Shown: positions 3,001 through 45,991 of the stretch, piece by piece
Layout of the letters: each line of letters starts with the position of its first letter
Position numbering within the stretch: the first letter of the stretch is position 1
Assembly: GCF_055900595.2 (NCBI RefSeq)
Contig: NZ_CM148325.1
Length of the DNA: 64,000 bases
Direction: 5' to 3' (one strand)
Notes under the pieces: model-generated
The model's input: the letters and a program-made list of their open reading frames with translations, nothing else
Told to the model about the DNA's origin: nothing
Databases searched by the model: none
Program-made: the position numbers and the translations under genes

Positions 3001-5131
3001 CACGCTGGATGTTATCTACACGGTGATAACCAGCCCGGACTCACCGAGCGCGAAATTCTGGGGACACATGCCGGACACCTTTACCAGTTCGGCAGGCGTC
3101 ACCTTCAGACGACCGCTCCTGAAAGCCGAAGCGACTTCAGGGTCATCGATTAGCACTAACGGTAATGGTGAAGTGTGGTCGTATATGAGCAACGTTCAAA
3201 ATTTAACATCGACAGATTGTCCGCTGGAGAATCAACCGCGCAGTAATGAATTGTTGGATTTGTATAATGATCATCCCAACGGCGCGATAATGACTGACCT
3301 GGGGCTGCCGATATATGCAGGCAAGTGGTGGGCTTATGATATGGTCATGCCGGATTTATATACGTGGCAGTATCAGACTGTCAGCCTGAGCGCAGGAGAT
3401 ATCGCGAAGAGCTCGGCAAACAACGCGCTGATGCTTTGCCTGGCGAAGCCGCATCCGGCAGGCGTCAGCGTAATGTTGACGTCATCCGCAATGGATAACG
3501 CCAGAACCCTCAGTAATGGCGGGCGACCCAGCGCGTCAGTGAAAAAAGGTAACCCACTGCCAATTGTGGTGACGGTCAAAGATCGTGATGGCAACCCGCT
3601 GGCGGGAGAGGCCGTGACGCTCAGGCGTGGTTCAGCGATGAGTCGTTCAGGAGCAGGAGTGGGCACGCCGGCAAATGCAATGACGTTGACAGAATTGACA
3701 CCTGTGTCGGCGGAGTTTTCTCTGGCCGCACACGATACGCAATGGCAAGGTTTCACCGGTAGTGATGGTACGGCCACTTTCAATGTTGAACAGCCTGAGA
3801 CCATCGGCCTGGCTATCTCGTTCACCGCTATACTGGCGCGAGATGTCGCAACTACCAGCGTCATTGATGCGATCTTTACCGTCGTCACCAGCCCGGATTC
3901 CGCAATGGCGACCTACTGGGGCCATATGCCGGATACGGTAACGGCGGAAAACGGCGTGGTCTTTGAACGGCCTAAATTGTTGAAAGAGCTGCCGTCGAGC
4001 GCCGGAGTCAGTCAGGTGACGGATAACAATGAAGTGTGGCCGTTGTTTAAGGCAACGCAAAGGGAAGATAGCAGCCTCAGTCCTTGTGAAGCGGCACGTC
4101 GGCCATTGAGCGATGATTTATTATCGCTCTACGCGCGCTATCCGGGGAACACGCTGACGACTCAAATCGGCTGGTCTACGAAGTATGCATGGTGGGCACT
4201 GGATAACAAGCAGGGGAATGCCCTGGTTGTCAGTCTGAATAATGGTTTTGAGTCGTCGACGGCGAGTACGGGGTATCAGGGATGTCTGGTCAATCCCCGC
4301 GCGACCGTCTCCAGCGTCACGCTGACATCGACGGCGATAGATGCCACTACGCAGGCGGCGAAGGTAAAAAAAGGTGAAGCCGCGCCCGTCGTTGTTACCG
4401 TAAAAGACAGCGCCGGGAAGCCGGTACCTAATGTCGCTTTCACCTTAAAACGTGGTGATGCCGTGCCGCGTAACAGCGGGGCGACGTTGTATGGTGATGT
4501 TGCGGCGATGGATGATATGACGGTACAACCTGCCAGCGGGACGGTGGTAACGCTGGCTGACAGTGGGAATACGATCGACGGTGTGACAGGGGCGGACGGT
4601 ACGGCAAGTTTTGCCGTTCGTCAGGATAATACGCCAGGATATAAAACGCCGTTGACGGTGACGCTGACGGATAACGCCACAATAACGGCGACGCTGGATA
4701 CGATTTTCACCGTGCCGACCAGCCCGAATGTCGCCACGGCGTATTTCTGGGGGCATATGGCGGATACCGCCACCGTAAGTGGCAAGACGTTACATCGCCC
4801 GCTATTGAAATCAGAGTTGCCGTCAGGGGCTACAGCGGCAGTAGCGCCAACGGTGAATAATGAAATCTGGGCGCTGGCACATGTGATCGATGCTCAAAAA
4901 TGGGATATTGCAAAGCAGTGCGGTGACTTTAGTAGAGCACCGAGCTATACCGATTTACAGTCATTGCATAGCGGTTTTAGCGCGCTGGGATGGCCATCAT
5001 CGATAAGCTTCCCCTATTTCTCTACCGATCGGGCCGGTTCGTTCTATTGTGGTATGGATGAAGGGGCGGGGACACAAAACTGCGGTATTCAGGCATCCAG
5101 TACCGCAGGGTTTGCGACTTGTTTCCAGTAG
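2..5131 (+). CDS. Giant repetitive Ig-like (BIG-domain) surface protein, RatA/RatB-like; 5' end lies outside the window
   Basis: Open frame continues to the window start (no in-frame stop upstream of the ORF-track Met at 59). Six tandem ~285-aa units each carry VKKGE..V.VT.KDAQGNP and FTVVTSPDSP..WGHMP.T motifs. Position beside xseA matches the rat/shd-type adhesin islet of enterobacteria (recalled). Confidence 0.6.
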   Translation, partial: VYVSCLTTANKPASSITLDVVDNAQWAAGNNAAKLKKGETLQVKVTVKDAQGNPLTDMPFKLSRGDGYTRTGEKHIAGSGDALVAPVVINSGLADETTLNDTAGFYTAMTGSDGSKILNITRPDTHGTKTALTATLYSDPTKKDSLDTIFTVVTSPDSSKAKMWGHMPETLTAADGTVFKRPLLIKELSSQTGRTAIFEDNENWALFTQTQANSTSNGCGTSYVPTQAGLLSLFDNHAGNTIKTVQGWPVVTRYLSSTPDNTGMEQRNYKAVDLGNGTSAMVSTSTLDLLTCQTTPVTTVSQILLEAADPAALIYVDDTLSVVKAKKGEESVVRVTTKDAQGNPVGNAAFILKRATSINRRYTSATASVGALTVTDAWGNTRSNFQATTEMIYGVTGADGSTTFTLKQDNSTGLRTDLTASLDGVSSVQATLPMVFTVVTSPDSPKANFWGHMPETVTAADGMTYKRPLLFKELTNNYARYSTFENGEDWARFSVVQSNNTDMDGCGAEYMPTLDGLQSLYSANSGNAMSTVQGWPVANSYLTNTPSDTQPSNRYYNVVQLNSGAVSQIVTTVLALQTCRTTPAVIASQVSLEPADATQFVKVDDTLSAIKVKKGDEVVIRVTTKDAQGNPVGNTPFTLKRSSSFNRQNALVTMQTVSVTPAAASTVDTNASATVYGVTGPDGTTTMTLRQDASTGLKTDFYALLNDTGVSSNTLPVIFTVVTSPDTPLAANWGHMAETFTSSKGVTFKRPFLKAELSGGTAVTTNNEVWSRLTATEKTDASKAGCDESYQPLMTDMQGLYADYPNNQLGTVLGLPTSAGYMWAYDMMTVSGSSWSNQAYSLVNGQTVQASSSYTAVVMCLVEPHTVPAMIEITSTAQDAAKTVSNGGRPSAVAKKGETIPLTVTVRDSTGNPVPYADFTLTRGTTLDRSKATVNSSADDLTVKSLIPANSDAGLTANGAKVLRTTGSDGTATFEVSQNATTGLATPITVTLARDTTKTATLDVIYTVITSPDSPSAKFWGHMPDTFTSSAGVTFRRPLLKAEATSGSSISTNGNGEVWSYMSNVQNLTSTDCPLENQPRSNELLDLYNDHPNGAIMTDLGLPIYAGKWWAYDMVMPDLYTWQYQTVSLSAGDIAKSSANNALMLCLAKPHPAGVSVMLTSSAMDNARTLSNGGRPSASVKKGNPLPIVVTVKDRDGNPLAGEAVTLRRGSAMSRSGAGVGTPANAMTLTELTPVSAEFSLAAHDTQWQGFTGSDGTATFNVEQPETIGLAISFTAILARDVATTSVIDAIFTVVTSPDSAMATYWGHMPDTVTAENGVVFERPKLLKELPSSAGVSQVTDNNEVWPLFKATQREDSSLSPCEAARRPLSDDLLSLYARYPGNTLTTQIGWSTKYAWWALDNKQGNALVVSLNNGFESSTASTGYQGCLVNPRATVSSVTLTSTAIDATTQAAKVKKGEAAPVVVTVKDSAGKPVPNVAFTLKRGDAVPRNSGATLYGDVAAMDDMTVQPASGTVVTLADSGNTIDGVTGADGTASFAVRQDNTPGYKTPLTVTLTDNATITATLDTIFTVPTSPNVATAYFWGHMADTATVSGKTLHRPLLKSELPSGATAAVAPTVNNEIWALAHVIDAQKWDIAKQCGDFSRAPSYTDLQSLHSGFSALGWPSSISFPYFSTDRAGSFYCGMDEGAGTQNCGIQASSTAGFATCFQ
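440..5000 (+). repeat. Six tandem ~855-bp coding repeats inside the RatA-like gene
   Basis: The accagcccgg / ccagtccagat core of the TSPDSP motif recurs at about 461, 1321, 2170, 3031, 3890 and 4721, giving a period of roughly 830-860 bp. Confidence 0.7.
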
Positions 5132-10030: not shown

Positions 10031-11245
10031 ATGGAGAGTGACCCGATGCTGACCGATACCAAACTGAAAAACCTCAAAGCGCGGGAAAAACTTTATAAAG
10101 TTGCAGACCGTGATGGGCTGTATGTAACCGTATCTCCCAAGGGATTGGTGACGTTTCGCTATGACTATCGAATCAATGGTCGTCGTGAAACGTTAACTAT
10201 TGGTCGCTATGGTGACGGTATTTCTCTGGCGCAGGCGCGCGAAAAATTAGTGGAAGCCAAAAAACGCGTAAATGCAGGAATATCGCCCGCTGGAGAGAAG
10301 CGTGACGGTAAAACAAAGCGAAAAGAAGAAAAGACACTCCACGATTTTACCGTCAGCTACATGAAACACACCCGGCTGGCGGACAGCACAAGGGCGATGA
10401 AGCAAAGCATTATCGACAGAGACATCACGCCAGTATGGGGGCGCAAGCTGCTGTCAGAGATAACCCCCTCTCTCCTACGTGAGTATTGCGACAAGATAAA
10501 AGCGCGTGGTGCGCCAGCGACGGCGATTCAGGTTCGCAATATCGTTAGTGCGGTATTTAAGTTCGCCGCGCTTCACGGCGACTATTACCCCAATCCTGCC
10601 GAAGAGGTTTTACCGGCTTCAATTGCGACATTCGAAGCGCGCGACAGGGCGCTCAAGCCAGAGGAGATAGGCTGGTTTTTCAATCAGCTTGAACAAACGG
10701 GTACATTACCCACCATCAAGCTGGCCATTAAATTGGTTTTATTAACGATGGTACGTAAAAGTGAACTGCTGAACGCTCCGTGGGGTGAGGTTAATTTTAA
10801 TGCCTGCCTTTGGACGATTGACGCCAGCCGGATGAAGGGATCACGGGATCATAATGTTTATCTGTCCCGGCAGGCACAGGACATTCTGATTGCCCTGAAA
10901 ATGTGCGCAGGAAGCAGTGATTGGGTTTTGCCTTCATGCAATCAGTCGTCGCATAAGACCATGTCGGCGGCGACCTTAAACCGGGTCATTAATCTTACGG
11001 TTAAGCAGGCGCAGGAACGGGGGATCAGGCTGGCGTCGTTTTCCGTTCACGATATGCGCCGAACGGCATCGACGTTATTGCATGAGGCGGGGTTTAATTC
11101 CGACTGGATAGAAAAATGCCTCGCGCACGAGGAAAGAAGCGTCAGAGCCGTTTATAACAAAGCGGAATACGCAGAGCAGCGCCGTGATATGTTGCAGCAG
11201 TGGGCGGATATGGTTGATGGGTGGATCAAGCAATACCGCCCGTAA
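10031..11245 (+). CDS. int: Tyrosine recombinase, P4-type phage integrase
   Basis: N-terminal arm-binding region DGLYVTVSPKGLVTFRYDYRINGRRETLTIGRYG and C-terminal catalytic HDMRRT ... AVYNKAEY (HxxR ... Y) typical of P4/CP4-57 integrases; true start may be the Met at about 10046. Confidence 0.9.
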   Translation: MESDPMLTDTKLKNLKAREKLYKVADRDGLYVTVSPKGLVTFRYDYRINGRRETLTIGRYGDGISLAQAREKLVEAKKRVNAGISPAGEKRDGKTKRKEEKTLHDFTVSYMKHTRLADSTRAMKQSIIDRDITPVWGRKLLSEITPSLLREYCDKIKARGAPATAIQVRNIVSAVFKFAALHGDYYPNPAEEVLPASIATFEARDRALKPEEIGWFFNQLEQTGTLPTIKLAIKLVLLTMVRKSELLNAPWGEVNFNACLWTIDASRMKGSRDHNVYLSRQAQDILIALKMCAGSSDWVLPSCNQSSHKTMSAATLNRVINLTVKQAQERGIRLASFSVHDMRRTASTLLHEAGFNSDWIEKCLAHEERSVRAVYNKAEYAEQRRDMLQQWADMVDGWIKQYRP

Positions 11246-16580: not shown

Positions 16581-17153
16581 ATGAAGTTGAATAATCTGGT
16601 TGCTCTTTACAGGAACATGACAGAGCAAAAATTGGATAGGGTTAAATTCCCATACAGACACAATAATTTACATTTTGATGTATTTTTCTTTATTGATGGA
16701 AAACCGTTTGAGCTTCTTTTCGGAGCATTAGGCGCTAATCTTTGCTTTCGTCTAAAAGTCGAGAAGGGATTCGTCATAAATCCTAATCTGGGAAGTGAGA
16801 CTTATAAAGAATTATGCAAGGCGCTAGGTTTGAAATATGACCCTGCCAATCCATTTAGAACAAGTAAGTTTTTTGAAGATTTTGATGGGAAAATCCCTAC
16901 ATCGGTTACTGTTAAGAATAAGGCAAAATATACTGATATTGCTGTGCATGTCAGGGATGTTGAAGAAGCAGACAGAATATATTTCTGTGGATGGAAAAAC
17001 AACAATGAAGAAAAGAGTCATGTTACTGAAGATAATTTAAAGAAAACGAAAGAGTTTTTAGGGTATCAGGCTTTTCTTGTTTGTAAGGAAAAGAATATTA
17101 GCAGTAGATGGACTGATTTAGAAAATAAAGCAAAAGATTTTTATTTACCATAG
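16581..17153 (+). CDS. Hypothetical protein (cassette gene 1), no recognisable motif
   Basis: 190-aa ORF with RBS ggagg upstream, AT-rich codon usage, 40 bp downstream of the HTH gene. Confidence 0.5.
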   Translation: MKLNNLVALYRNMTEQKLDRVKFPYRHNNLHFDVFFFIDGKPFELLFGALGANLCFRLKVEKGFVINPNLGSETYKELCKALGLKYDPANPFRTSKFFEDFDGKIPTSVTVKNKAKYTDIAVHVRDVEEADRIYFCGWKNNNEEKSHVTEDNLKKTKEFLGYQAFLVCKEKNISSRWTDLENKAKDFYLP

Positions 17154-17167
17154 GATTGTGAGGTTAT

Positions 17168-18316
17168 ATGTCTGATATTTCATTAGGGTGCGTGGTTGTT
17201 CATAGGTTGATAAAAGAGCAACATAAAGATTTCGATCACTCAAAACCATATAGTCGCCGTGATACGGTTCTTGACCGAAATAATGAAATCGTAATTAAAC
17301 TAGTGTCCAGTATAGCCGCATTGTATGGTAAAAAATCTAATAGCTCGCATTATGGTATATTTAATTTAGATGAAACACGCAGGGGGCCTTTTCCAGCGGA
17401 ATTTGATAAATATCGGAATGATACATCCAAGAAGTTAGACGATGAATTGTTTATAGGATTATCAAAAAATGTTATGCATCAGTTATATATTGAGGCAAAG
17501 GATCGACCTGCTGCATCAGGAGGATTACTTCTTTTTGCTGATTATATCAGTAAATCCGTGCGTTACTTTCTTATTGCAATGATTAAGCAAAAGGAAGGTA
17601 TAGTTATTAGTGATAAATTAGAGCCAAAGGAGTTAGAGCATCTTGATCTGGCAAAACTAAACCAGGCGGCACGAATAAACTATGATTTGTATGATAAATA
17701 TATTTCCGCTGATGAGAATGAAAGACAGGATGTTAATTATTTAAGTTTTGTTAGTCCCAGTTCTAACCAGACAACTTCAGGGTATTTCATTACTGCCTTA
17801 GGTTGTGATAAAGGTAATACATCAACTAAAGCTACGAGTAATTTAATTAATGAATCTTTTAACTTCTTCAGAAATCATCAAGAATTAAAGGATAATGCCC
17901 GTAAATTTAAAAATGAAATTATTGAGTATTTATTCGATTGTTCTGAAAATAACATTTCAGCTAAGCTCTCTGTTGTTAGTGAGATGGCGGCGAAGCATAT
18001 GGTTAATTTAGAAGATGACATTAAAGATAAATTGTCAGAAGAATTATATGCTCATTTGAATAGTGAAAGTATTCGTGTGCCTGTGGAATTTAGGGTAAGC
18101 AAATCAGTAGTTAAGAAAAACAGAAATATTAAATATACAAGTGATAATGTTAATTTTGAGTTTAAATCTAGTTTACTAGGCAATACTCTTGATAATGAGA
18201 TATGCTATAATAAGAAAACTGGACATTTAACTTTTACTCGGATTACTCCTGAGAAAAAAAGTGAAATAGCTCAATTGCTTGATGAGTTAATAAAAGAAAG
18301 AAATAGCGAAAAATAA
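17168..18316 (+). CDS. NdpA/YejK-like nucleoid-associated-protein family member (cassette gene 2)
   Basis: N-terminal VVVHRLIKEQH and SGGLLLFADYISKSVRYFLIAMIK align by eye with YejK IALHQLIKRDE and [24 protein letters not shown] (sequence recalled from memory); further colinear similarity towards the C-terminus. Confidence 0.5.
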   Translation: MSDISLGCVVVHRLIKEQHKDFDHSKPYSRRDTVLDRNNEIVIKLVSSIAALYGKKSNSSHYGIFNLDETRRGPFPAEFDKYRNDTSKKLDDELFIGLSKNVMHQLYIEAKDRPAASGGLLLFADYISKSVRYFLIAMIKQKEGIVISDKLEPKELEHLDLAKLNQAARINYDLYDKYISADENERQDVNYLSFVSPSSNQTTSGYFITALGCDKGNTSTKATSNLINESFNFFRNHQELKDNARKFKNEIIEYLFDCSENNISAKLSVVSEMAAKHMVNLEDDIKDKLSEELYAHLNSESIRVPVEFRVSKSVVKKNRNIKYTSDNVNFEFKSSLLGNTLDNEICYNKKTGHLTFTRITPEKKSEIAQLLDELIKERNSEK

Positions 18317-26096: not shown

Positions 26097-26204
26097 CATG
26101 AGGCGAGCCTCCATCAGGTCAATAAATGACGATGGTGGCACAGAGCGAAAAGGGCGGTGACGGCTTCCACTTGTAACCACTGGCACTACAAGCAGAAGCG
26201 GTTT

Positions 26205-30391: not shown

Positions 30392-31295
30392 CGCTTCCCC
30401 CGATGGCAATTTTCCATCCGGTGCAGTAGCTGGCCTGCGTTTTGTTGATAATGACATCAACGGCAGGGGAGAGCAGTTCTACGCGCTGAACACCGGTGAC
30501 ATGCAGTGCGGCGTAAATCGCGCTGCGGCGAATATCACGCCCGATCCGATGCTGGTCATTAACGTAGCTTTTTAGCCGCTGCTCGGCGGCCTGCCGAATG
30601 GGTTCCTGCTCCGGGCCAGGATAGCAATAAAGTACGGCATCAATCTGATATGGGATCACTTCGGCGGACTGAATGGTTGGGCGATCACCTACCGGACGAA
30701 TATCAATATCGTTCAGGGCGGAATCGACTATCGCCAGCAGTTCTGCGCTGGCCAGCCCGTTGCCTTCGCGGGAGAGTACCGACACGGTGACGTAACAAGG
30801 ATAGGGGCTGATAGCGGAGACGTCTGCGATACGCCCGTCTGCGCTGCGGGCGTGATATTCGTAGGCGGCGGTCGGGCCTGCGACGGACAGACCTTCAAAC
30901 GCCTGCTGTGCGCGCATTCGTAAATCGCTGTCGGATTCATAAACCGGATCAACGGGCGGTATCGCCGTACTGTCTCCGGGCGAAATTTGCAGGCGAAAAA
31001 CCTTAAAGTTAGCGACCAGATTATCCAGATCGCGCCCGGCGGCATGGGCCAGCATATTAGCAACGGCGGCTTCATTGATGCGTACCCGCAGCGCCATCTC
31101 TAAGTAAGTATTTTCCTGCAACAGCTTGACGAAGGGTTCTGATTCATAGCCCAGTGTGCGGGTAACTTCTGCTTGCTGTTCGGCAGGATACAGGCTGATA
31201 AAGCGCTGCTTGCGGGCGGTTAGCAGGGTTTCAAAATCGACTGTTTCCACCACATCGGGGATCGGTAATTGGCTTAAATCGGTCAGTGCGCTCAT
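30384..31295 (-). CDS. J: Baseplate assembly protein J (P2 gpJ-like)
   Basis: DLSQLPIPDVVETVDFETLL resembles the P2 J N-terminus; ORF track start at 31331 probably too far upstream. Confidence 0.8.
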   Translation of the reverse strand: MSALTDLSQLPIPDVVETVDFETLLTARKQRFISLYPAEQQAEVTRTLGYESEPFVKLLQENTYLEMALRVRINEAAVANMLAHAAGRDLDNLVANFKVFRLQISPGDSTAIPPVDPVYESDSDLRMRAQQAFEGLSVAGPTAAYEYHARSADGRIADVSAISPYPCYVTVSVLSREGNGLASAELLAIVDSALNDIDIRPVGDRPTIQSAEVIPYQIDAVLYCYPGPEQEPIRQAAEQRLKSYVNDQHRIGRDIRRSAIYAALHVTGVQRVELLSPAVDVIINKTQASYCTGWKIAIGGSDE

Positions 31296-31642
31296 GGACG
31301 TCTCCTGTCGATTGGAATGGAGAATGTCCACGGCTGGCCGGGGATATCGGTACGTTCGGCTTCAATAGTGACGCTAAGATCGGCATTATCCGCAGCAAAG
31401 TCCACACCGATAATCTCGATGCGGGGTTCCCAGCGCGTCAGCGCCATGACCACTGCCGACATCACCCGTAGCCGGGTAGCGCCATCGTTGGGCTGGTCGA
31501 TCAGGTTGCCGATCAGTGAGCCATAATCGCGACGCATCACGCGCGTACCTACCGGCGTGGTCAAAATATCTTTTACGGATTGCTTAATGTGCAACTCGTC
31601 GCTTAACACTCTGCCGGTTTCAGCGTTCATACCGAGGTACAT
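31292..31642 (-). CDS. W: Baseplate protein W (gp25-like)
   Basis: 116-aa ORF in the P2 V-W-J-I order. Confidence 0.75.
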   Translation of the reverse strand: MYLGMNAETGRVLSDELHIKQSVKDILTTPVGTRVMRRDYGSLIGNLIDQPNDGATRLRVMSAVVMALTRWEPRIEIIGVDFAADNADLSVTIEAERTDIPGQPWTFSIPIDRRRP

Positions 31643-32241
31643 TACTGCGGCCCTCCGGTATTGCTACCCCCGCGCTCTACGCCTGTGTGCGTGTGGGTAT
31701 GAACGGTGACGCCGTTGGAGGTAAAACTGCCGCCGCTGTGGGTGTAAGCACCTTTAAGCGTGCCGCCTTTTTTAACCGACAGCGTGGCGGTTTCCAGATG
31801 CTGGGTGCAGACGACGAGCGGTGTATCCAGCGTGACGCGGGTGCTGGCTTCGACCAGTGCGGTCTTGATGCCGGTAGCTTTTAACGTGCTGGAGCGCGGA
31901 TCATATTCAATCACCGCACCATCGGGGTAAACGCTATGGTGAACCTGTTCATCCAGCAGCGGGGCGGGGTTGGCGTCAGAGTAAATGGCCGGAAGTGCCA
32001 CGGCGGTGGTTAACTCACCGCTTAAACAGAGCAGTAACACCTGTTCGCCTGTTGATGGCCGCCACCACGTCCGGGCATCACCGGCGCGTAGCGTCAGCCA
32101 CGGTATCCAGTTGGTGGTCAGTTCACCAGTGTGAATGCGTACTCGATCGCCCTTCACCTCTTCAACGGTGCCGGTACGGATCAGGTTTTCAATGCGCCGG
32201 TGCAGCTCGGCGAGGTTGGCTGGGTGGTTTGCGTCGCTCAT
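31642..32241 (-). CDS. V: Baseplate spike/assembly protein V
   Basis: 199-aa ORF preceding W in P2 order. Confidence 0.75.
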   Translation of the reverse strand: MSDANHPANLAELHRRIENLIRTGTVEEVKGDRVRIHTGELTTNWIPWLTLRAGDARTWWRPSTGEQVLLLCLSGELTTAVALPAIYSDANPAPLLDEQVHHSVYPDGAVIEYDPRSSTLKATGIKTALVEASTRVTLDTPLVVCTQHLETATLSVKKGGTLKGAYTHSGGSFTSNGVTVHTHTHTGVERGGSNTGGPQ

Positions 32242-32312
32242 GCCGGAATCATTGGGATTCGCGGGCGAAGAGGGAAGGGCTAAGGCTTGTAGGATAATGG
32301 GCTACAAGTAAA

Positions 32313-32332
32313 ACGCCCCTGAGTAGGGGCGT
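32313..32332 (-). terminator. Weak hairpin downstream of hicB
   Basis: acgcccct-gagt-aggggcgt stem-loop 16 bp after the hicB stop; poor U-run. Confidence 0.3.
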
Positions 32333-32347
32333 TGAACGAAAAAGAGC

Positions 32348-32683
32348 TTAACCGTGCGCAGCCTTCATCAGTGTATCGTTAATCCACTGGTTAACGCTTT
32401 TACCGGAGACTTCTGCCGCAACGTTAATGGCAGAGTGAATTTCAGGTGGAATACGCAGGCTGATTTTTCCGCTGGCCGGACGCAACGGCTCCCGGCCCCG
32501 TTCCTCGCAGTAAGCCAGATAGTCGTCTACCGCCTCTTCAAACGCTTTACGCAGATCGGCAACATTATCGGCATGAAAGCCAATGACATCCCGAATGCCT
32601 GCAACGTGACCAACAATGCATTGATCTTCATCGCTGTATTCAATTTTTGCGGCATAGCCTCTATATGTCATGGTATTCATCAT
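32348..32683 (-). CDS. hicB: HicB-family antitoxin
   Basis: N-terminal HicB-like region YRGYAAKIEYSDEDQCIVGHVAGIRDVIGFHADNVADLRKAFEEAVDDYL plus C-terminal ribbon-helix-helix ISLRIPPEIHSAINVAAEVSGKSVNQWI; overlaps hicA by 4 nt. Confidence 0.7.
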   Translation of the reverse strand: MMNTMTYRGYAAKIEYSDEDQCIVGHVAGIRDVIGFHADNVADLRKAFEEAVDDYLAYCEERGREPLRPASGKISLRIPPEIHSAINVAAEVSGKSVNQWINDTLMKAAHG

Positions 32684-32943
32684 GGTGTTACCCCTACAGC
32701 TTCAAGGAATGTTCTGGCATCGCGAACCTGATAGGCTTTCGCTTCTTTTTCCGGGTGTGGACGATGAAATGAAGCCACAACCTGATTAATTTCAAACCTG
32801 ACGCGGGAACCGTTTCCTTCCGTAGCAATAGCCCCCAAAGCAATAAATAAGGCTTCTATTTTTCGCCATTCCAGCGTGACAGGTGTTGGCGTAGAAAAAA
32901 CAGCTTGTAAGGTTTTTTTATGTTTGGCGCTTAACGTATTCAT
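32680..32943 (-). CDS. hicA: HicA-family mRNA interferase toxin
   Basis: GNGSRVRF ... HRPHPEKE pattern resembling the HicA G.H / RHP core; paired with HicB. Confidence 0.6.
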   Translation of the reverse strand: MNTLSAKHKKTLQAVFSTPTPVTLEWRKIEALFIALGAIATEGNGSRVRFEINQVVASFHRPHPEKEAKAYQVRDARTFLEAVGVTP

Positions 32944-32993
32944 ACAGGGTATTTTCCATAAGTTATTTTATTCTTCCGCCAAGATATAATGAT

Positions 32994-33017
32994 GATATCA
33001 TTTTTTGATATCATTTC
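32994..33017. promoter_or_regulatory. Direct repeat GATATCATTTT x2, putative hicAB operator
   Basis: gatatcatttt at 32994-33004 and gatatcatttc at 33007-33017 in the AT-rich region upstream of hicA, alongside a TATAAT-like element. Confidence 0.35.
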
Positions 33018-33462
33018 AAGTCAGGAAGTGAACGATTAGCGCCTCTATCTTTCGCACATCCTCCGCCGAAACCCCCAGCAACTGCCTTTGTGCGTAATCC
33101 ACCTCCAACCCGTAGCGATTTACCCGATCGCGCAGGCCATACTGATGAACGGCGGCCATATGTCGAACGCTGCTGAGAAACGAAATGGTTACACCCTGCC
33201 CATCGCCTTTTCCTTTCATATAGCGTGCGGTACGCAGCTTACGGAACATCTGGCGGCGGATCTTTCCTTTTTTACTGCGTAGCTGGGGCTTACGGGGGGC
33301 GAACGATGAGCCGTCCGGGTTTTTCTGCGCGGCTATCCGCTGGCTTTGTGACTGGCGCAGGCTGCGGGCGATTTCCCGCGCCAGTTGGGTTCGGCTTGCC
33401 GGGGAGAGCTTTACGAGCAGGCCATCGGCCCAGCGGTGGAGTTGTTGCAGGTCTTCGCTCAT
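33016..33462 (-). CDS. S: Tail completion protein S
   Basis: 148-aa ORF in P2 R-S order. Confidence 0.75.
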   Translation of the reverse strand: MSEDLQQLHRWADGLLVKLSPASRTQLAREIARSLRQSQSQRIAAQKNPDGSSFAPRKPQLRSKKGKIRRQMFRKLRTARYMKGKGDGQGVTISFLSSVRHMAAVHQYGLRDRVNRYGLEVDYAQRQLLGVSAEDVRKIEALIVHFLT

Positions 33463-33920
33463 CAGGTGCTCACAATCGTTTCACCGCGACAGGCGATTTC
33501 CCAGCCGTTGTAACCGCTTTCTGGCTGCTGGTCGTTACAGTGCTTTGCTTCCAGACCACCGTCGCGCTGGCGAACAATGACGCGCTCGGTCAGCGCCAGT
33601 TTGATGCTGATATCGTAGCTTTGATGGTCGATGGCTTCGGCCTCAAACTGAAACGCCTGCTCGCGCAGGTCGCTATTGGCGAAGGCTTCCTGCTGGTGAA
33701 GCGACATCCAGCCGACCAGTAGCACCATCAGCGTATCGGGATCGGCGGCGTAGTCGGTGATCAACAGTTCCAGCGTGTACTGGTATTCAAAACTGGTGCT
33801 GCGCCCTGCGGTGGCGACGATCCGGCCCTTATTGATAAAGATCCGCAGCGCGTCCGGGTTCTGCTGTAGATGCGGGACGCTGGCGGCCAGCAGTTCACGG
33901 ATGAGCTGCGCTTTGTGCAT
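33462..33920 (-). CDS. R: Tail completion protein R
   Basis: 152-aa ORF following the lysis cassette, P2 order. Confidence 0.75.
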   Translation of the reverse strand: MHKAQLIRELLAASVPHLQQNPDALRIFINKGRIVATAGRSTSFEYQYTLELLITDYAADPDTLMVLLVGWMSLHQQEAFANSDLREQAFQFEAEAIDHQSYDISIKLALTERVIVRQRDGGLEAKHCNDQQPESGYNGWEIACRGETIVST

Positions 33921-35924: not shown

Positions 35925-36038
35925 GGTGTTTCCCGCGCGGCGTCAGGTGATGCGGGGATGGTGGCACAGGGGCGGGAAGTGAAGGGAAGGCTTCCGCTTG
36001 TAACTGAGGACAGTACAAGCGGAAGCGATTGGCGAGGG

Positions 36039-41059: not shown

Positions 41060-41214
41060 AACGTTCAGTCCCGGCGTTGGCTAAATAAGCGAATGGTCGG
41101 GTAGTCCTCCGCTATCAGGCAACGGGCTTCGCTTGTAATCATCCGGGTTACAAGCGGCATTGCTACGCGCAGACAGCGGCTTGTTTACGCTGACGGCAGA
41201 AACGAGAGGACGTT

Positions 41215-44917: not shown

Positions 44918-45457
44918 TTAGTTAAACCAGCTGTCCGATTTGTTTTCTTCTGCTTTGCCCACGCTTTTCATCAGATCGCGACCGCCTTCAGTCATATTCC
45001 TGTTTGCGTCAGCTTCAGATTGCACCACATCGGTTTGCGCAGCTTTGTGCTTCAGTTCCTGATCGATAAATTCGTTTTCTCGCTTAACGCGGGCTTCTTC
45101 TTTCGCCAGCGCCAGTTTTTGTTTCTGAATCTCTAAGCTGCGTAGCTCATCTTCATAACTTTGATCGCGTTTCTTGTCCGCAGTGGCTTCGGCGTCCAGT
45201 TTATCCTGACGAGCTTTCTTATTCGCCGCTGCCGTTGCCGCTCTTTTATTAGCCGCGGCCTGGGCGTTTGCGCGACGTTGCTTCTCTTGCTGGATTTCCC
45301 TGTTGCGCTCCGCGACCCATTCGTCATGCTGCCTTTGCTCTTCGTTTTTACCTTGCTGTTCCGCTTCTGCGACAGCAGAGAGTTGATCCTGCAATGATGA
45401 GGCGATAGCCGGATAGCTTAAGGAGGCTAAGATGGCGCAAAGAAAAACTTTCTTCAT
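44918..45457 (-). CDS. yfgI: YfgI-like secreted coiled-coil protein
   Basis: 179-aa ORF with signal peptide MKKVFLCAILASLSYPAIA and a Lys/Ala/Glu/Gln-rich body; position matches K-12 yfgI (recalled). Confidence 0.75.
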   Translation of the reverse strand: MKKVFLCAILASLSYPAIASSLQDQLSAVAEAEQQGKNEEQRQHDEWVAERNREIQQEKQRRANAQAAANKRAATAAANKKARQDKLDAEATADKKRDQSYEDELRSLEIQKQKLALAKEEARVKRENEFIDQELKHKAAQTDVVQSEADANRNMTEGGRDLMKSVGKAEENKSDSWFN

Positions 45458-45472
45458 GACTCCTCCTGATTA

Positions 45473-45991
45473 TTAGCTCTTTTCAGGACATTTGGTATTT
45501 GGCTGAATACGCGTTTCGTTATACGTCGTGGTAATAACAACGGCTAAACCTGTCGTAAACTGGCACTCTTTACCCACCTGGGTGGAGGTATACACTTTGG
45601 TGCCTTCCTTATACGTTAGAGAAACACCTTCCACTAAGGTTTTATCATTCACCATAGAACCTGCTGCCGCGCCAACAGCTCCGCCGCCAACTGCACCTGC
45701 CGTCGTTCCGGAATTGCTGCCAGACCCCACGTTGTGGCCGATAACACCGCCAGCGACTGCACCAATAAGCGCGCCGAAGGCTTGTGCGTTTCGTTTATTT
45801 TGGGAGTTGTCTACGGCAACTTTTGCGGGAAGAATGGAAATAATATTAACGGTTTTAGTTTCTTGTTTGGTATTCAGTTGATCGGTTTGATAAACATCGG
45901 CGGCATGATCATCAGCATTTGACTGGCATCCTGCCAGAGTGAATGACGCTAACATTGCCACAGGCAGAAGACATTTTTTAAATTTCATCAC
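45473..45991 (-). CDS. yfgH: Glycine-zipper outer-membrane lipoprotein YfgH-like
   Basis: Lipobox LAGC and glycine-zipper region GALIGAVAGGVIGHNVGSG ... GAVGGGAVGAAAG. Confidence 0.75.
   Translation of the reverse strand: MMKFKKCLLPVAMLASFTLAGCQSNADDHAADVYQTDQLNTKQETKTVNIISILPAKVAVDNSQNKRNAQAFGALIGAVAGGVIGHNVGSGSNSGTTAGAVGGGAVGAAAGSMVNDKTLVEGVSLTYKEGTKVYTSTQVGKECQFTTGLAVVITTTYNETRIQPNTKCPEKS

Follow-up and report, generated by a model that had tools for sequence, protein, structure and literature searches.

Two of the described RHH-type HicAB systems (Gerdes class 4), HicA3-HicB3 of Y. pestis and HicAB of B. pseudomallei (4P78, 6G26), have much in common with the locus reported here. In both, hicA precedes hicB, the HicA protein has a dsRBD-like fold, and HicB joins an N-terminal partial RNase-H-like domain to a C-terminal RHH domain. 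RHH HicBs bind palindromic operators within their own promoters (PMC10865869, PMC11594946). In Y. pestis two such palindromic sites, BS1 and BS2, lie upstream of hicA, and one of them covers the −10 element (PMC11594946). A histidine in the turn between strands beta1 and beta2 (G-S-H) is required for toxicity in all characterised HicAs, namely Bps H24, Yp H28, Ec H23 and Stp H36 (PMC3969222, PMC11594946), and the mechanistically studied HicAs all rely on this residue (PMC3969222, PMC11594946, PMC4848639). A second histidine at the equivalent of position 40, which is found in many HicAs and is spatially close to His24, has been remarked for B. pseudomallei (PMC3969222). A review has stressed that a role of HicAB in defence is unproven (PMC11594946).

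The phage side of the comparison is given by P2. In the P2 record, S is followed by a putative O-operon terminator, then by orf30, a non-essential frame of 261 aa on the opposite strand, and then by the pV activator site and the start of V. Transcription of V in P2 starts at the first base of the V coding sequence, with the P2 dyad 57 nt further upstream. P2-like phages have further cargo hotspots at old/tin, at Z/fun and downstream of gpL. The orf30 locus is one of three regions in which P2-like phages commonly carry non-P2 genes (PMC3091744). Accessory and defence hotspots within the P2 late genes have also been noted (bioRxiv 10.64898/2026.02.27.708500; 10.1101/2024.10.15.618418). The slot between S and V is not among the hotspots detailed in the accessible parts of PMC9122126 or bioRxiv 2024.10.15.618418.

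Here, we explored this slot in a window of 64,000 nucleotides, which is the whole stretch of DNA analysed. The host chromosome is that of E. coli; ppx, ppk, purM, uraA and bepA lie on the right side of the prophage, and the flanks are ordinary. The genes gpR, gpS, hicA, hicB, gpV and gpW follow each other on the minus strand (Table 1), and R, S, V and W were unambiguous by Pfam and NCBIfam profiles. A first-pass annotation had proposed a HicAB module at 32313–33017, between S and V and with an AT-rich upstream region. This span fits the unit well, both neighbours were confirmed by their profiles, and the GC content was 0.39–0.47 over 32500–33100 versus 0.57–0.62 in the flanks. The low GC content of the insert, which compares with about 0.58–0.60 outside it, is typical of acquired DNA. 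Our analysis indicated, with good confidence, that the cassette is an autonomous HicA/HicB unit with its own promoter, candidate operator and hairpin, and that it is accessory cargo (a 'moron') which a P2-like prophage has in its orf30 slot, between the S stop codon and the Ogr-type P_V activator site.

Table 1. Features of the S-V region, further activator dyads of the window, and homologous cassettes in other genomes.
Feature	Position	Strand	Description
gpR	33462–33920	−	
gpS	33016–33462	−	Tail-completion gene, ends the upstream late unit; Pfam Phage_tail_S 124.9 bits, TIGR01635 124 bits
hicAB promoter-like site	32992–33019	−	−35 TTGAAA 33019–33014, 16-nt spacer, extended −10 TG 33000–32999, TATCAT 32997–32992
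Putative HicB operator	32993–33013	−	Two 8-bp palindromes TGATATCA, 33013–33006 and 33000–32993
hicA	32680–32943	−	87 aa; extra N-terminal helix and dsRBD-like core; GSR (R47), FHRPHP (H60, H63); by Pfam, PHROG, AF2, Foldseek and conservation
hicB	32348–32683	−	111 aa, or 110 aa from the second ATG (32680); by Pfam, PHROG, AF2 and Foldseek
Terminator-like hairpin	32308–32333	−	Stem 32333–32325 / 32320–32312, loop ACUC, then UUUUAC; terminator scan
P_V activator dyad (Ogr-type)	32286–32308	−	CTTGTA-N11-TACAAG, between the hicB hairpin and V; centre 56 nt upstream of the V ATG; right boundary of the cargo slot
gpV	31642–32241	−	Baseplate spike gene, starts the downstream late unit; TIGR01644 185.9 bits; Pfam Phage_base_V, Phage_spike, Apex
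gpW	31292–31642	−	
Dyad	26170		Upstream of the sheath gene block
Dyad	35997		Upstream of gene X and the lysis genes
Dyad	41132		In the divergent capsid/terminase gap
Atlantibacter cassette			Flanked by the hyc operon and by a gene for a sigma-54 activator (presumably fhlA)
Yersinia cassette			ssrA-integrase island
Citrobacter cassette			Adjoins a Dus-family gene
Rahnella cassette			Among housekeeping genes

The first-pass annotation had also described the two genes as overlapping and as hicA-like and hicB-like, and our profile search bore this out. The 87-aa protein matched Pfam HicA_toxin (PF07927) over residues 26–75 with 33.5 bits (cut-off 27 bits), and the 111-aa protein matched Pfam HicB (PF05534) over residues 55–105 with 66 bits (cut-off 21 bits) and a TacA1-like RHH profile with 24.1 bits. 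In the PHROGs collection the first protein fell into PHROG 8887, 'toxin' (E = 1.7e-32), and the second into PHROG 9151, 'HicB-like antitoxin'; both are in the moron category. The stop codon of hicA and the start codon of hicB share the sequence ATGA, a 4-nt overlap on the same strand, and both reading frames are intact. AGGGG, which is Shine-Dalgarno-like, lies upstream of the hicB start. The order hicA then hicB with close linkage was also present in all homologous loci.

The predicted structures point to the same families. The AlphaFold2 model of HicA, built with 20 homologues, had a pLDDT of 91.4 and showed the elements H26–35, E39–42, E47–52, E55–60 and H70–82, that is, an alpha1-beta1-beta2-beta3-alpha2 core of the dsRBD-like type, with the extra helix at 6–16. 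Foldseek placed this model nearest to HicA toxins of the PDB; a lack of similarity to the HicA fold had been named in the first-pass annotation as a finding that would refute the module. The top match was B. pseudomallei HicA (6g26_E, prob 0.99); E. coli HicA (6hpb_A, TM 0.74 on the target, rmsd 2.2 A) and TTHA1913 (1whz) were also found. The HicB model was weaker, with a pLDDT of 73. Its strands 4–7, 10–17, 22–27 and 36–38 and helix 41–61 (pLDDT about 70–85) form a HicB-type beta-beta-beta-alpha domain (partial RNase H) of the toxin-binding type, and an extended segment then leads to helices 80–92 and 97–110, which correspond to an RHH DNA-binding domain. The best Foldseek match of HicB was TTHA0281 (2dsy_D, prob 0.99), together with B. 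pseudomallei HicB (6g26_A/B) and E. coli HicB3 (6u0i_B, prob 0.98). The E-values were weak (≥ 0.016 for HicA and 0.25–0.44 for HicB) because both domains are small; nonetheless, the rankings were specific. Thus, the profiles and the modelled folds together show that both proteins belong to the HicA and HicB families, and the module fits Gerdes class 4 (PMC10865869).

The differences from the solved RHH-type systems are also clear. Their proteins have no detectable sequence similarity to the pair of the window, and searches of the PDB by sequence, with single proteins and with profiles, gave only chance matches for HicA and HicB, such as CBP KIX and Arc. The window HicA has 87 aa with an extra N-terminal helix, whereas the solved HicAs have about 60 aa. 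The two genes overlap, whereas 174 bp separate them in Y. pestis. An NCBIfam search with the 87-aa HicA gave no match, and neither protein matched the PADLOC-DB v2 models at E ≤ 0.01.

The region upstream of hicA was examined for control signals. A consensus scan detected a sigma-70-like promoter with 10 of 12 consensus matches plus the TG of an extended −10. Two promoter-like sites were found in the window versus 1.4 expected, so such a site is not above chance on its own. The S stop codon TGA (33016–33018) sits within the −35 hexamer of this promoter. Another promoter-like site, at 32671–32643, was considered as a promoter for hicB only and was rejected because it lies downstream of the hicB start codon. 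The two TGATATCA palindromes are 13 bp apart, centre to centre, and overlap the −35/−10 spacer and the −10 element. The sequence TGATATCATTT occurs twice and exactly, at 32993–33003 and 33006–33016. The tandem repeat unit that had been reported earlier, GATATCATTTT, was thus essentially right, except that its second copy ends in C.

The arrangement TGATATCA-N5-TGATATCA was found once in the window versus 0.03 expected (with up to 2 mismatches). We compared six contexts, namely the window, a second P2-like prophage (L007) and four unrelated chromosomal settings. In the block TGATATCA-N5-TGATATCAT, 17 of 17 palindrome positions were invariant over all six, and the 5-nt spacer varied. The promoter elements TTGA and TGnTATCAT were kept upstream of the homologous cassettes in five contexts. 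The combined string TTGA-nn-TGATATCA-N5-TGATATCAT precedes cassettes that are 75–87% identical, and upstream of the −35 element the likeness is lost. Its invariance in four chromosomal settings that are unrelated to each other marks the motif as a genuine operator-type element of the cassette. A TGATATCA pair placed over the promoter core is the expected footprint of autorepression, and we regard the pair as a putative operator of HicB, as in Y. pestis, where the two sites are similarly placed. For this clade of HicB proteins a sharply defined candidate operator, TGATATCA-N5-TGATATCA, is now available. The spacing of 13 bp differs from the approximately 10–11 bp that same-face binding would call for, which counts against the operator reading.

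The boundaries of the slot are set by the late promoters of the phage. CTTGTA-N11-TACAAG dyads, the late-promoter activator sites of the phage, were found four times in the window versus 0.11 expected, and a block of late genes follows each of them. The position of the P_V dyad and the annotation of P2 together place the cassette in the orf30 slot, between two late transcription units. Accordingly, the earlier statement that the module is inserted in the tail operon has to be corrected, as the cassette lies upstream of the P_V activator site and between two units. The statement that P2 has only a small orf here was also inexact, since orf30 encodes 261 aa on the opposite strand and is not especially small. 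The orf30 locus of P2 and the cargo of the window share the same physical slot, which follows S and precedes both the pV activator site and the start of V transcription, and in both the cargo is of low GC content, non-essential and variable among relatives. However, P2 has a single 261-aa frame of unknown function on the opposite strand and a separate O-operon terminator, whereas the cargo of the window reads in the direction of the late genes, with no terminator ahead of it.

A hairpin downstream of hicB had been noted before, and it was recovered here at 32312–32333 with a 9-bp stem, 6 G-C pairs, −17.3 kcal/mol and z = −3.4 against shuffled sequences. The hairpin is retained in L007 with a compensatory change from T-A to G-C at the loop-closing pair, and cassettes in other settings have unrelated hairpins 3' of hicB. 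It likely ends the hicAB transcript as well as read-through from R-S, just ahead of the P_V activator site. Only four U residues follow it, so termination may be partial. An Rfam scan of 32100–33200 matched no family.

We then surveyed the slot in relatives found through gpS. HicAB occupies it in four of them (L001, L002, L005 and L007), with HicA 87%–100% identical to that of the window. The alternative or absent cargo was tallied over 35 related loci. Three close relatives carry a Gp49/HI1420-type toxin-antitoxin pair, an AbiTii protein and a RelE/HTH toxin-antitoxin pair, respectively. More distant ones carry an NYN-LOTUS protein with an unknown protein, a Dam methyltransferase, an aerolysin beside an IS-like frame, or other unknowns, and in most of the distant relatives the slot is empty, with S followed by the dyad within a few bases. 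The P_V dyad is kept in relatives with different cargo, and their homology resumes exactly at CTTGT. The insert therefore shows what is expected of slot cargo: the R-S late unit ends on one side of it and the P_V activator site follows on the other, it varies among relatives, and its GC content is atypical. The resulting map, from the S stop codon through the cargo and the activator dyad to a leaderless-type V start, is precise and shows why the slot tolerates cargo. In this lineage the slot cycles through several toxin-antitoxin types, AbiTii and other accessory genes, and it would lend itself to mining, as do the better-known hotspots of P2.

A megablast search with the S-hicAB-V region gave no match in the phage collection, and in a sensitive nucleotide search against phages gpV alone matched, with about 70% identity. 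The insert was absent from 5,426 complete E. coli genomes. The prophage is evidently rare, because these genomes gave merely two 50-nt matches, both at the P_V end.

By analogy with Y. pestis HicB3 and B. pseudomallei HicB, the cassette would work as follows. In the lysogen, a sigma-70 promoter belonging to the cassette would drive hicAB. This promoter would be repressed when HicB, alone or in complex with HicA, binds the two TGATATCA palindromes through the RHH domain. The overlap of stop and start codons would couple translation of hicB to that of hicA, so that antitoxin is made together with toxin. The N-terminal domain of HicB would mask the active face of HicA, and free HicA would cause growth arrest, most likely by cutting RNA. 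As there is no terminator between S and hicA, late R-S transcripts should read into hicAB, cross the whole cassette and end only at the hairpin ahead of P_V.

The likely benefit of the cassette is that the prophage is retained (addiction), that the lysogen is defended in the manner of abortive infection, or both. AbiTii and the other toxin-antitoxin pairs that fill the slot in relatives lean towards conflict functions. Without a PADLOC match, however, a defence role is only contextual.

It could be argued instead that the cassette is purely selfish, serves neither phage nor lysogen, and persists only because the gap between the S and V operons tolerates insertions. Two-gene cassettes with HicA 75–87% identical were found in four unrelated chromosomal settings without phage genes (Table 1). 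A perfect direct repeat of 33 nt brackets one Rahnella copy and suggests that the cassette went in as a single unit; in the 64-kb window no flanking direct repeats marking insertion of the cassette were found. These near-identical cassettes at unrelated sites, together with the lack of a PADLOC match and the finding that an IncX4 relative gave its plasmid almost no advantage (PMC11878559), would suit a selfish element. The cassettes at unrelated sites also show that the promoter/palindrome block moves with the hicAB genes between genomes, which agrees with the earlier proposal of an autonomous unit with its own operator-like repeat. However, the same slot in relatives holds AbiTii, two other toxin-antitoxin types, an NYN nuclease-domain protein and a methyltransferase. 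Such cargo resembles the defence cargo reported at other P2 hotspots (PMC9122126; bioRxiv 10.64898/2026.02.27.708500). Moreover, HicAB has been kept at the slot in at least four related prophages. We consider a purely selfish cassette rather unlikely, and prefer the reading of the cassette as accessory cargo of the prophage.

The most unusual feature of this module is its HicA. The canonical catalytic histidine is missing, and the beta1-beta2 turn reads G45-S46-R47, where Y. pestis and B. pseudomallei HicA have GSH; histidines are found in FHRPHP instead. R47 was invariant in 20 of 20 homologues. Among 150 representatives of 50%-identity clusters of the subfamily, position 47 was R in 122, A in 11, S in 6, K in 2 and G in 2, and never His (0/150). 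G45 (146/150), S46 (144/150), H60 (144/150) and H63 (140/150) were near-invariant. Because R47 replaces the histidine, the protein is of the HicA family by profile and fold but is not of the canonical GSH type. An hhalign comparison of 142 subfamily representatives with the E. coli HicA family alignment paired R47 with H23 and H63 with H38; this alignment was full-length yet weak (prob 28%). An earlier comparison of the 20-sequence alignment with the E. coli HicA profile was misaligned (prob 1.8%) and was discarded.

The clade is large and widespread. It counts 1,927 cluster representatives at E ≤ 0.001, and members with the GSR and FHRPHP motifs occur in chromosomes, in phages and in IncX4/IncI2 plasmids, including mcr-1 plasmids. 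One relative is the IncX4/IncI2 hicAB pair (WP_000520549/WP_000681613). It has the same 4-nt overlap of stop and start, an RHH-type HicB and the motifs GSRVRF and HRPHP, and in a joint alignment G45, S46, R47, H60, R61, P62, H63 and P64 are invariant. It differs in its identity to the window (35–37% for HicA and 33–34% for HicB), in the length of HicA (82 aa), in its plasmid rather than prophage carrier, and in its promoter region, which has an AACTA-N4-TAGTT dyad without TGATATCA. This IncX4 pair (L048) is apparently of the 'HicA-O-B' pJIE143 (JN194214)/p14EC007a type of PMC11878559, as linked by replicon type and ORF overlap. For IncX4 hicAB with overlapping frames, HicA was reported to be toxic in E. 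coli K-12 and to be neutralised by its HicB (PMC11878559). No RNase activity of GSR-type members is described in the HicA literature cited here. By analogy with the plasmid pair, the arginine variant is probably an active toxin with a different catalytic arrangement.

A more far-reaching proposal is that the GSR/FHRPHP clade has moved or rebuilt its active site. Toxicity, either by catalysis or by non-catalytic binding of RNA or ribosomes, would then depend on His60 and His63 in the beta3-alpha2 loop together with Arg47 and Arg49, and not on a histidine of the beta1-beta2 turn. The cassette may also be wired to the lytic programme, because late R-S transcription would read straight into hicAB. 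We hold this proposal as possible but tentative, with the odds somewhat against it. If it were true, the relocated active site would define a mechanistically distinct branch of HicA without a solved structure.

The missing histidine may also be taken as a sign of decay. In such a toxin-dead module HicA would no longer be a nuclease, and HicB would survive only to regulate as a small DNA-binding protein, or to shield the phage, as a decoy antitoxin, from HicA-type defences of the host. The replacement of an essential histidine by R47, the modest Pfam score of 33.5 bits and the lack of any solved HicA homologue by sequence search would agree with this, and phages are known to acquire antitoxins or antitoxin mimics (PMC11594946). 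However, GSR and FHRPHP are near-invariant over the 150 representatives, which indicates a constrained active surface and not decay. Both frames are intact with a coupled overlap, and the IncX4 homologue with the same motifs matches the subfamily that was reported as toxic and neutralised by HicB. We thus regard a toxin-dead module as improbable, and a functional HicA/HicB unit remains our preferred reading.

It is very improbable that the repeats and the hairpin belong to late-gene control of the phage (an Ogr, Cox or C site, or the O-operon terminator) and not to hicAB: the hairpin does lie where P2 annotates its O-operon terminator region relative to P_V, and the −35 hexamer does overlap the S stop codon, but in four contexts outside phages the palindromes precede hicA without any change, relatives whose slot is empty or holds other cargo lack them, and they differ from the phage activator motif CTTGTA-N11-TACAAG. 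The hairpin may well serve both hicAB and the phage unit, which is compatible with the reading of the cassette as autonomous cargo.

It is already on record that toxin-antitoxin pairs occur as prophage morons and that the S-V (orf30) slot is a site of acquired genes, and the HicAB finding adds little to the understanding of P2-like phages. Two leads are worth keeping: the S-V slot as a hotspot for cargo, and the HicA clade without the histidine. The latter is of note in that a large and widespread clade, including the pair of mcr-1 IncX4 plasmids, lacks the residue on which all mechanistic work on HicA has been based.

HicAB pairs of the same kind occur in other phages. The prophage HicAB of P. 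aeruginosa PA1 was considered as a precedent and was set aside, because it is of the canonical His24/HTH type and sits in a different phage setting. Closer likeness was found in Burkholderia phage ST79 (Peduoviridae) and Ralstonia phage Dina, whose HicA proteins belong to the same subfamily, with 40–45% identity, GSR and HRPHP motifs and an RHH HicB. Both pairs fall into PHROGs 8887 'toxin' and 9151 'HicB-like antitoxin'. The hicAB genes of ST79 adjoin the portal gene in an old/tin-type hotspot, and those of Dina lie between tail genes on the opposite strand. TGATA-type dyads upstream of both pairs are related to those of the window.

The gap between S and V, which corresponds to the orf30 locus of P2 and runs from the S stop codon to the activator dyad of the V-operon late promoter (pV), holds cargo other than hicAB in the related prophages L006, L008, L009, L014, L028 and L033. 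Two kinds of toxin-antitoxin (TA) pair were found in this set, one of the Gp49/HI1420 type and one RelE/HTH pair. The slot also carries AbiTii, an NYN-LOTUS protein together with an unknown 308-aa protein, a Dam methyltransferase, and an aerolysin-family toxin adjoining an IS-like ORF. A hairpin lies immediately before the dyad in L008, where the cargo is co-oriented, and after S in L006 and L009, where it is oppositely oriented.

A homologous hicAB cassette on a Rahnella metagenome contig (L046) is flanked on both sides by a perfect 33-nt direct repeat, which is itself a terminator hairpin (TGAGGGCAGCCAGAGGGCTGCCTTTTTTGTTTA). This repeat hints at the mode of insertion of the cassette. We searched the window for a similar flanking repeat and found none.

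The plasmid-borne hicAB of L048 and L049 (IncX4 and IncI2 mcr-1-type plasmids) encodes a HicA that falls, like that of the window, in the histidine-less GSR/HRPHP group. The plasmid version is widespread: it occurs in 799 plasmid records, and in 392 of these the identity is at least 99%. Its promoter region differs from that of the window cassette, with a dyad AACTA-N4-TAGTT lying over the -10 element.

The prophage seems to carry a second TA pair, which looks Phd/Doc-like. The pair sits within the variable gpL-gpX region and is encoded on the other strand from the late genes. Its Fic/DOC-family member was recognized by Pfam, and the small ORF that it overlaps had no match in the Pfam search. 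The genes near gpD and those adjoining the portal gene are probably further cargo; the latter occupy the classical old/tin hotspot position.

Features of the prophage and of the Rahnella contig (window coordinates unless stated)
Feature	Position	Strand	Remark
33-nt repeat copies (L046 coordinates)	2892-2924, 3610-3642		718 nt between copies
Integrase	10031-11245		
DUF6037 protein and 37-kDa nucleoid-associated-family protein	16581-18316	+	near gpD
CTTGTA-N11-TACAAG dyads	26170-26192, 32286-32308, 35997-36019, 41132-41154		each precedes a late gene block
Small ORF, 62 aa	37051-37239	+	4-nt overlap with Fic/DOC-family ORF
Fic/DOC-family ORF, 125 aa	37236-37613	+	Pfam Fic, 41.5 bits
DUF5384 protein and glycine-zipper/TraT-like protein	44918-45991	-	adjoin portal gene

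The late genes of this P2-like prophage have a GC content of about 57-60%. No near match to 31642-33920 was detected among 50,697 phage records and 5,426 complete E. coli genomes, and near-identical copies are confined to a single TPA E. coli assembly, a single sequencing run and a single IMG/VR contig. Despite this, the chromosome around the prophage is typical of E. coli.

The dyad CTTGTA-N11-TACAAG occurs four times in the window, whereas 0.11 copies would be expected by chance. These dyads are presumably Ogr-type activator sites for the late promoters of the phage. Their TTGT-to-ACAA spacing is 13 nt, in contrast to 11 nt in the pV site of P2.
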